64,000 bases of DNA from Eledone cirrhosa. Its lineage: Eukaryota. The notes below the pieces were generated by a model. That model did no database searches, was not told the origin of the DNA, and saw only the letters and a list, made by a program, of their open reading frames with translations. A program made the position numbers and the translations under genes. The stretch is from positions 37,138,001-37,202,000 of the forward strand of contig OZ024751.1 in NCBI GenBank assembly GCA_964016885.1. Reading direction: 5' to 3'. This document shows, in pieces, positions 12,991 to 63,658 of this stretch (its first letter is position 1; each line of letters begins with the position of its first letter).

Positions 12991-15900
12991 GATTTCTTTA
13001 TTAACCACAAGGGTTTACATAAAGTAGACATTAAGGACAGTGCAGGACAATGCAGGACGGTACAAATGGGCATTTCTGCGTGTAAAAAAAACAAAAATAG
13101 AGGATGTAACAAAAATAACAATGAAAATAACAATGAAAAATTCCCCAATAGGGGGGAGACTTCGGAGGGACATTTGTGGAGAAAGCCCAGTAAAAAGCCA
13201 CAATGACCCTGACCACCAAGGCAAGTGCCCTCTCCCAGTTTTCCACCTTTAGTTTACAGATATATACTCAGAGTCGGCCCATTCACTCGGGCCATTCTTG
13301 CTTCTCTCACCCATCTTTCAACAAAATGCTGGGAAGAGAGCACTTCCTTCTCTACTCTGATTTTCCTTTTCAAATGAAATTTGAAAAAGTCAATCAGAGC
13401 ATCACCGAAGAGGTAAGTGCTCGTCTTCAGCCCTTTCAAACGTGTCCACCATACTATCTCTTTCGCCATGGCCACCAGACAGATAAAAACTGCCTGCCCT
13501 TCCCGGCTAAAGGAGGAGGGCGGGGCAATCCTCACGATAGACTCAGATGATAGCTGGATCCGTCCTAAACGCGACAGCAGGTGTTCGACATAAACCCACA
13601 AGTCAGCAATTTTCGGACACTGGACGAGTGCGTGCAGGACGGTTTCGTCGCCCTGCGCGCATCTCGGACATGCCCGGCTGACGGCACCTCCATGCCTGTA
13701 GAGTTTATCCCGAACTGGCAAGGCTCCTCGGTAGCACTGCCAGGCCAGAGATTTCTGGAAGTTGTCCATAGGCCCTGGCCCGAAGGTTCTTCCGAAGAGA
13801 TTGGCTAGTTGATTTTCGTCGACGCCTAGAGTTTCCCCAAGTACGTCGTCGCTCTTCCCCTCCACTAATCCTCTATAGAACGCCGAGGTGGAGTTTCCAC
13901 CGATCACATTGCCCGATTGGTCGAGGGCTGTGAGCGCCTGAAGACATTCCAGTCTCCAGGCGCTCCCTCTCGGTCTTCGCTTGACCCAGGACTGCAGCTC
14001 CGTCAAGGAAACGAGCTGGGGAAAAACGCGTCTAGCAAACGGCGACCACACCTGATCACCGTCGAGGAAGAGGTGGAGATGTCGTAGCCTGAGCGCGTGC
14101 CTGCGCATCATCAGCCACGGCATGCCCAGCCCTCCACGTAGCGGGTGTTGACAACAGATGGACCGCCTGACCATCGGAGCACGTCCCTTCCACAAAAAGC
14201 GAAAGAGCAAACGCTCCAGCGCAGTCAGGCGAGGCTTAGGACAAGGTACGACGGTTAGGCGGTAGCAGATGACAGACGCGATGTACGCGTTAGCCACCTC
14301 CGCTCGACCTTTCAGGGATAGCTTCCTCTCCGCCCATTTCTGGGTGAGAGAAGCCACCCTGCTCGTCACCTCGTCCCAGTTTTTGTCCGTCTGGAGGTCC
14401 GGACCGAACCAGACCCCTAGCAATTTAACCGGTCCGTCCGTCCAGCGCCCGACGACGCTGTTGGACGGCATGGACCTGCCTCTCCAGGTGCCGAGCTGCA
14501 GGCCCACTGACTTTTCCTGGTTGATCATTGCTCCTGTCACCGCTTCGTATTCTCTTAGTGTAGTGCCGATCGCCTCGATGTGTTTGGCGTTCGACACCAC
14601 TACGGTGACATCGTCCGCATATGCTGACACGGATCTTCCGCATCCTAGTTCGCGCGGGACTCCCCTCAACGTCTCCAGTTTGTGCAGTAATGGCTCGAGA
14701 GTCAATACGTACAAGAGGGACGAGAGGGGACATCCTTGGCGGACCGAGCGCATGATGTTGAACGGTTCCGACAGGTGACCGTTCACTCTCACCACAGAGC
14801 AGATGTCGCTGTGCATGGCAGCGATCCAGCCTCTGAAGACGGGCCCAAAGCCAGCCGCCCTCAGGACTGCCGCTAGGTAACGATGGTCGACCCTATCGAA
14901 AGCTTTCGACTGATCTAAATTGATCAAGGACCCACCCGTGCCAGGTTCCCTAGCTACCCTCTCTACGATGTATCGCATGAGGTGGAGGTTGTCGTGGATG
15001 GATCTGTCGGGAATGGCGCATGTCTGCGCCTCTCCCACCAGACCACCAACGACAAGCGCCAACCTCTTTGCTAGCACCTTGGCCAAAATCTTAAACTCTG
15101 TGTTTAGCAGAGTTATGGGCCGGAAATTGTCTATGTTATCCCCCTTGTTCGGATCCTTTCTCAGCAGTGCCACCGCTCCTCGGCTCACAGAACTGGGAAT
15201 TCTCCCGTTCTGTTGCCAGTTGCAGTAGACGTCCGCCAAGAGGCCTCCGAACAAGTCTGGCATCTGTACGTAAAGTTCATAGGGCAGACCATCCAAACCA
15301 GGCGATTTACCCCTTGTGCAGCCAGTCATTGCCTCCCTTACTTCAGCGGCTGTTATCGGCTTTTCGCAACACTTCGCCTCAGTGGCCGAGAGCCGCGGCA
15401 GTCCGTCGAGGTAGACACTAAAGTCCATCCCTCTACCCGGCCCCCCGCTGCCCCCGAACAGCTGAGCGAAGTGTCGCTGAAAAGCTTCACACATTTGCCC
15501 GGGATCGAGTAGCATGCGCCCGTCGTGGTCCACCAAAGACCGGATCGTGGCTTTGTTGCCACGACGCGCCTCCGCCACTCGGGCCCATTGAACGGCTTTC
15601 GTCCCCTCGTGTCTGAGAGCACGCACCCTAGCTCTGACAACGCAGCCTTCGTGCTTTGCATTGAAGAATTGGTCAAGGGCCAATTTCGCCGCAAGCACGT
15701 CGGTCGCAATGCCTTTGCTAAGCGCCTCGTCTAATTTTCTAACTAGTTCTCCCTCTGCTCTATTTTTCTCTATTGCTAAAGCCTTACTAAACCTAATCGA
15801 TTCTATTCTAATCGCTCTTTTCAGAGCAAACCACCACTTGTTGTTGACGATGGCCCCCGTCAACGCCCGCTTAACTAGTTCGCTAATCCGGTCTCTGTAG

Positions 15901-63395: not shown

Positions 63396-63658
63396 ACTAA
63401 AGGTGGAAAACTGGGAGAGGGCACTTGCCTTGGTGGTCAGGGTCATTGTGGCTTTTTACTGGGCTTTCTCCACAAATGTCCCTCCGAAGTCTCCCCCCTA
63501 TTGGGGAATTTTTCATTGTTATTTTCATTGTTATTTTTGTTACATCCTCTATTTTTGTTTTTTTTACACGCAGAAATGCCCATTTGTACCGTCCTGCATT
63601 GTCCTGCACTGTCCTTAATGTCTACTTTATGTAAACCCTTGTGGTTAATAAAGAAATC

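Follow-up and report, generated by a model that had tools for sequence, protein, structure and literature searches.

The window, the whole 64-kb stretch of DNA analysed here, is rich in microsatellites and has a GC content of ~30%, with two islands of ~50% GC. Self-comparison of the window places in it five copies of one LINE at 99.7-99.9% identity, organized in two head-to-tail arrays located at (ATT)n runs. Array 1, on the minus strand, consists of copy B followed by copy A, and array 2, on the plus strand, of copies C, D and E. The arrays lie head-to-head and are oriented away from each other on either side of a 20.9-kb spacer. Their features, in window coordinates, are the following.

12925..12990, minus strand: outer 3′ flank of array 1, a degenerate (ATT)n run adjoining the 3′ end of A
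12991..18785, minus strand: copy A, 5,795 bp, 5′-truncated, the downstream member of array 1; ORF2 (16673-13254) intact
18786..18836, minus strand: B/A junction, 51 bp, an exact copy of the 51 bp preceding B
18837..24631, minus strand: copy B, 5,795 bp, with the same truncation point as A; ORF2 (22519-19100) intact
24632..24682, minus strand: outer 5′ flank of array 1, the segment duplicated at the B/A junction
45430..45483, plus strand: outer 5′ flank of array 2 (hereafter M), a 54-bp interrupted ATT microsatellite
45484..51506, plus strand: copy C, the longest form, with 235 bp more 5′ sequence than A and B; ORF1 at 45696-47789, carrying a private 6-bp deletion, and ORF2 at 47825-51244 (EN, RT and zf-RVT)
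51507..51545, plus strand: C/D junction, 39 bp, identical to the final 39 bp of M
51546..57574, plus strand: copy D, with the 5′ part of E and the 3′ part of C except for three private SNPs
55164..55228, plus strand: cluster of the three D-private SNPs, within 65 bp
57575..57628, plus strand: D/E junction, 54 bp, an exact copy of the whole of M
57629..63658, plus strand: copy E, an exact composite of the 5′ part of D and the 3′ part of A
63659..63703, plus strand: outer 3′ flank of array 2, (ATT)15

Together, segments 12991-24631 and 45484-63658 make up an inverted repeat whose arms measure ~12 kb and are 99.7-99.9% identical, a substrate for inversion or conversion. The spacer itself contains a minisatellite rich in GA (38931-39856), in which periods of 57, 140, 197 and 254 bp are nested, and a 30-bp repeat in ~7 copies (35743-35947). 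A search of the window against Rfam gave no match anywhere.

Each of the five copies possesses one ORF1 and a stop-free ORF2 of 1,139 aa. ORF1 (697-699 aa) lies upstream of ORF2 and separate from it, and gave no match in Pfam; ORF2 contains the Pfam domains Exo_endo_phos (22-210), RVT_1 (511-754) and zf-RVT (974-1026), and its closest PDB structure is human L1 ORF2p (E 2.7e-52), with R2 at 1e-21. The presence of two ORFs, the lack of LTRs, a 3′ end on a simple repeat and 5′ truncation (A and B) are traits of the L1 group, and the element is an L1-group non-LTR retrotransposon. Membership of the Tx1 clade is plausible; the 52 matches of a homolog search (best 79% identity) included no clade name and no named Tx1 reference, and cluster look-ups gave the same outcome. 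The repeat landscape, together with one short match to an Octopus sinensis protein (5% of the query), suggests a eukaryotic host and perhaps an octopod. In A and B, flank bases (24632-24643 and 18786-18797, minus strand) provide ORF1 with an in-frame ATG, so that the frame starts with MDHTSLP and not with MATKKKKFHTSLP. These truncated copies retain two open frames, and their translation from read-through RNA is conceivable. The last 12 nt of the 5′ flank of array 1, just before B, resemble filler.

The 3′ ends of all five local copies abut ATT, which may be target sequence or a tail that the RNA brought along. Family 3′ ends running into ATT repeats occur on 74 contigs of public run X1 and 11 of run X4, and a 26-nt 3′-end motif gave 0 matches in metagenome contigs. 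For a 9.9-kb query, 61% of which is element, nine other organisms (runs X5-X13) contain 28-51% of the words sampled from it, and contigs of X5 and X6 are ~99% alike over 1.5-2.4 kb. The LINE family is young and common to several organisms.

A MAFFT alignment of the five shared cores comprises 5,795 columns. A sequence-only reading of the window had listed alleles at six sites (C 47549, 47944, 50713, 50959, 51150 and 51400, here sites 1 to 6), and all 30 calls agree with the alignment. Its caution that the list might be incomplete was justified, as the alignment contains further variants: C alone lacks 6 bp, in frame, after 47346; D alone carries SNPs at 55164, 55193 and 55228; and the 3′UTR has a 1-bp indel, where a T is absent from C and D at C51406. 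A and B differ at a single site (13785 vs 19631), and C, D and E differ from one another at 4-7 SNPs; no variant falls in the first 1,628 columns of the core or in the 235 bp by which C, D and E extend further 5′. Six of the eight coding SNPs are synonymous, compared with 24-31% expected (P 0.003-0.013), and the remaining two exchange Lys and Arg. Such an excess would be expected of alleles drawn from selected source lineages, and random errors would not yield it. The clustering of three D-private SNPs in 65 bp has a chance of 0.0004-0.002, and the third of them (55228) is an allele common in public contigs; the cluster is probably a short patch derived from another family copy.

Four-gamete violations affect 6 of the 21 pairs formed by seven informative sites. 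The two pairs reported by the sequence-only reading (site 1 with site 3, and site 2 with site 3) were reproduced, and four more associate site 1 with sites 4, 5 and 6 and with the 1-bp indel. Could these patterns arise by recurrent mutation on a clonal tree, with no recombination at all? Site 1 is a CpG transition (ACG/ACA), and the best of the 15 possible trees needs 9 changes for 7 sites, so that two recurrences suffice. In simulations of 11 mutations under four settings, at least two recurrent hits occurred with a probability of 7e-5 to 0.025, the highest value coming from the setting in which mutable sites numbered 1,000 and hotspots were 20-fold. On this simulated chance recurrent mutation was rejected, and its probability is very slight. 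Given the improbability of two recurrences, recombination or conversion is needed if the assembly is taken as given. Incompatibility also rises with the distance between sites (exact permutation p = 0.024); two other statistics of site order were not significant (p = 0.40 and 0.11).

The number of mosaics required is smaller than was first claimed. The five copies had all been described as recombinant mosaics, yet dropping E alone clears all six violations (4 are left after dropping A, 5 after B, 2 after C and 1 after D). The violation between sites 2 and 3 survives the removal of D. With a breakpoint placed between 60095 and 61247, copy E shows 0 differences from D on the 5′ side and from A on the 3′ side, in keeping with the earlier observation that its 3′ part matches A. 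Copy D, described as E-like at the 5′ end and C-like at the 3′ end, fits that description except for its three clustered private SNPs, and is a candidate mosaic whose switch would lie between 53617 and 55164. The violations all vanish when masking is applied to the 5′ parts of D and B or to those of E and A, whether or not an outgroup is included. The minimum is therefore one mosaic (E) produced by one crossover, and a solution with a mosaic in each array (D and B) fits just as well. Taken by itself, the allele mosaic, with seven informative sites and one required crossover, is modest evidence.

The reality of the alleles was examined in 4 of 24 listed public runs, all consisting of contigs, by comparison with copy B and its flank; 40 of 470 variant rows were displayed, summed depths are not copy numbers and allele shares in X1 are not frequencies. 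Among the rows displayed, alternative alleles were seen at four of the nine SNP sites (22400, 21184, 19385 and 19194); the five others, sites 19631 and 18944 included, are not among these rows. Random base error is unlikely to account for the SNPs, since these four alleles occur in public-run contigs, and real family alleles are compatible with polishing or with a haplotype switch. In X5 record 17, a contig from another organism, the C/D alleles at both 19385 and 19194 occur together with the 1-bp deletion, which identifies the C/D-type 3′ block as a standing haplotype. This deletion is present in X5 only, with a depth of 0 in X1 and X4, and the 6-bp deletion of C is absent among the 12 listed indels of every run compared. 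A second X5 contig (record 24), used as outgroup, has 10 differences, all among the displayed rows; it carries G at site 1 and C at site 2, and of the D-private sites the first two have the common allele and the third that of D. The A alleles at site 1 (D and E) and site 2 (A and B) are probably derived, as both are absent from this outgroup contig. No contig among those listed bridges a junction, and positions 24628-24783 were left out of the comparison as repeat. At several sites of B, for example 22121, 23233, 20618, 19098 and 19121, the five copies agree with one another and differ from the main X4 contigs, which come from the same organism; alleles of this kind point to one young sublineage.

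An assembly artefact, whether a haplotype switch, an over-expanded repeat or polishing with reads of other copies, has to be weighed against these data, which are unphased contigs. An over-expanded C-E dimer would yield a copy with the 5′ part of E and the 3′ part of C, the 65-bp cluster fits one short read, polishing would bring in real family alleles, and five of the nine SNP sites are missing from the displayed rows. Over-expansion, however, repeats one junction, yet the C/D and D/E junctions differ by 15 bp; D has three private SNPs, and all five ORF2 are intact. Two of the three D-private alleles differ from the X5 contig and B's allele is found in X4 record 11 at the first of these sites, a pattern unlike that of a majority vote. 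Unique flank of the window matches X1 contigs (records 7 and 8) with 0 differences, although X1 may be the source sample and hence not independent. Plain assembly duplication, against which the sequence-only reading had argued from the allele pattern, was rejected on the junction lengths (39 vs 54 bp) and the private SNPs of D, and artefact in its wider sense is improbable.

The strongest evidence lies in the junctions, above the allele pattern. All three (51, 39 and 54 bp) are exact suffix copies of the outer 5′ flank of their own array. Each begins at the first ATT of a run, immediately after the last base of the element (at (ATT)3 for B/A), holds no base specific to the 3′ flank, and reaches beyond the (ATT)n to the left of the first element. 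The C/D junction equals the D/E junction minus one 15-bp direct repeat. In array 1, A and B begin at the same base and are preceded by the same 51-bp flank, apparent filler included. The duplicated flank has a unique core of 42 bp, which occurs exactly twice in the window. If a single copy had been duplicated through microhomology of at least 8 nt between its outer flanks, array 1 would offer 42 possible junctions, 6 of them pure suffixes, and array 2 would offer 48, of which 11 are pure suffixes; the longest flank homologies (15 and 26 nt) are not used in the junctions observed. Double insertion does not suit A and B, given their shared truncation base, their shared 51-bp flank with apparent filler and a junction that is not an ordinary TSD. 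Reinsertion in cis of a read-through transcript was rejected as sole cause, since it predicts the alleles of the neighbour throughout, and C, D and E differ at 4-7 SNPs.

Exchange at the DNA level is a more substantial competitor. It would combine formation of a dimer, or duplication by microhomology, with unequal exchange giving D, slippage of 15 bp and ectopic conversion (for instance from A to E). A dimer followed by unequal exchange is an established route to transposable-element arrays, as described in the available text of 10.1101/158386. D is a composite of E and C bar its three clustered SNPs, as unequal exchange in a C-E dimer gives, E is exactly a composite of D and A, the 65-bp cluster of D looks like a conversion tract, and the two arrays constitute a long inverted repeat of near-identical arms 20.9 kb apart. 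Against this stand the first junction of each array, which is left unexplained given the proportions of pure suffixes and the longest homologies skipped, the violation between sites 2 and 3 that persists without D, and the need for slippage together with either several donors or a conversion tract no shorter than 2.3 kb. Unequal exchange would by itself give identical junctions, and those of array 2 measure 39 and 54 bp, a difference that slippage could produce. Overall, an origin by DNA-level exchange is unlikely, though it retains an appreciable probability.

The recombination might also be older, having taken place among source elements elsewhere by switching of reverse transcriptase between two RNAs or by conversion, so that the local copies would sample existing mosaics. 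The family is large and diverse (48,970 X1 contigs align to copy B), and the C/D-type 3′ block exists on one contig of another organism. This explanation gives no account of the derived 5′ alleles common to tandem neighbours, nor of the duplicated flanks and the shared truncation, and it is quite improbable.

In the reading preferred here, a new insertion begins with priming at an ATT run next to a resident copy, after which its cDNA switches onto this neighbour, in either direction of growth; the chances of this reading are about even. An active family of L1-group LINEs would insert at the edges of (ATT)n runs and, where an array forms, prime within ~40-55 bp of a resident copy; most economically, a single nick would lie at a run edge 39-54 bp upstream of the resident. 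Reverse transcription would start from the 3′ end of the source RNA; the cDNA would then stop on the RNA and invade the near-identical neighbouring copy. Synthesis would be completed on this genomic DNA, through the 5′ part of the neighbour and its 5′ junction and then along the flank as far as the nick. One tandem copy would be gained per event, with a 3′ part derived from the source RNA and a 5′ part and junction derived from the neighbour.

Two directions of growth are conceivable. In the simplest geometry, upstream growth, A would be followed by B in array 1, and E by D and then C in array 2; the mosaics would be D and B, and the A alleles at sites 1 and 2 would have been private to the residents until D and B acquired them by copying. 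In the mirror process, downstream growth, copies would be added at the 3′ tail of the resident, and the mosaics would be E and A, sharing one young source. The alleles fit downstream growth equally, the newest copies then having the more-derived 3′ ends, and the C/D junction requires 15-bp slippage or another order. The junctions were considered as proof of the order E, D, C, an argument that is weakened because the identity of D/E with M fits both directions and C/D may reflect slippage. The products, that is, mosaic alleles, flank copies and a shared truncation, are seen in the assembly, and from them we infer the switch itself and the order of events.

Templating by the neighbour is favoured by the three pure-suffix junctions out of three, the truncation shared by A and B, the result of masking and the ATT-bound 3′ ends. 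An SDSA-type chimeric insertion would have a 3′ part from a source RNA, a 5′ part from the resident neighbour and a flank duplicated from nick to neighbour; duplicated flanks occur at all three junctions, and the allele split fits, yet not uniquely. Several observations speak against templating by the neighbour. The claim that 5′ parts tend to follow the neighbour holds for site 1 (A in D and E) and for site 2 (A in A and B, to which this allele is confined among the five copies, so that it is array-specific as stated), a signal of two sites, A and B differing at one. A single crossover between arrays (E = D + A) covers all the alleles with fewer events, and the clustered D-private SNPs would resemble a patch more than a separate source. 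The alleles had been read as a sign of templating by the neighbour; they do demand recombination, and are fitted equally by unequal exchange or conversion. The mosaic observation is thus confirmed, and its interpretation by neighbour templating partly supported. A broader proposal, that arrays are routinely built in this way, with a resident copy rescuing nearby incomplete insertions as template, thereby extending the array and recombining source lineages, is tentative and rather doubtful.

LINE insertions are mostly 5′-truncated and dead, and LINE lineages are commonly regarded as clonal. If neighbours complete insertions, short cDNAs would become full-length copies and haplotypes would recombine, providing an otherwise clonal element with a regular form of recombination. 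Arrays would then arise without double insertion, an extra route from LINE to satellite would exist, and subfamily trees and ages would be read differently. If exchange at the DNA level holds, the locus shows nothing more unusual than young repeats exchanging sequence. It is the anatomy of the junctions, not the allele mosaic, that makes the case worth a genome-wide examination.

Chimeras of new and resident L1 elements with local duplication were reportedly obtained in cultured cells by Gilbert et al. in 2005. For human L1, an SDSA-like switch of the cDNA to nearby DNA has been proposed on the basis of 22 templated insertions in tumours, with templates of <250 bp located within 15 bp of the site (10.1101/2024.08.27.596794, available text). 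As in the model proposed here, the cDNA departs from the RNA for homologous DNA close by, with which it pairs, and a segment of the genome is duplicated. In contrast, the template proposed here would be a whole neighbouring copy, over kilobases, the product a tandem array of intact elements, and two or three events are proposed within one 51-kb assembled stretch. In the literature searched (titles and abstract openings, few of them from subscription journals), neighbour-templated tandem arrays of intact LINEs are undescribed, and the available text of PMC10760644 and PMC5105311 contains nothing on chimeras with a resident copy. In Drosophila, tandem copies of R1, jockey, P and hobo are attributed to double insertion followed by unequal exchange, with distinct truncations in 6 of 10 mapped jockey dimers (10.1101/158386, available text). 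There too, copies are head-to-tail with duplicated target DNA between them. In double insertions, according to that text, the same TSD recurs and the members frequently differ in 5′ truncation, whereas here A and B share one truncation and the spacers (39-54 bp) extend past the putative original site and include the apparent filler of the resident. R2 shows homology-guided 5′ junctions as well, their uniformity arising from homology between cDNA and target DNA (PMC3774820, available text); in R2 this homology is carried in the RNA (9-36 nt of 28S), whereas the pairing proposed here would involve the body of the element and the neighbouring copy.

Comparison with Tx1-clade LINEs bears on the target. 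In the available text of PMC4494074, Kibi is found at (TC)n and Koshi at (TTC)n, a related tandem element, SINEU-3, is described, and target preference is defined by >20% of flanks of one type; L1-Tx1 accounts for 421 recent insertions in Octopus vulgaris (PMC13282606, available text). The element studied here resembles these LINEs in its two ORFs, APE endonuclease and RT, apparent microsatellite target and tandem insertions. It differs by that apparent target, (ATT)n, for which the available text of PMC4494074 names no family. In both arrays, the 8-mer TTATATTT precedes the ATT run nearest the first element (~24653-24660, minus strand, and 45452-45459, plus strand) and is possibly a preferred target context.
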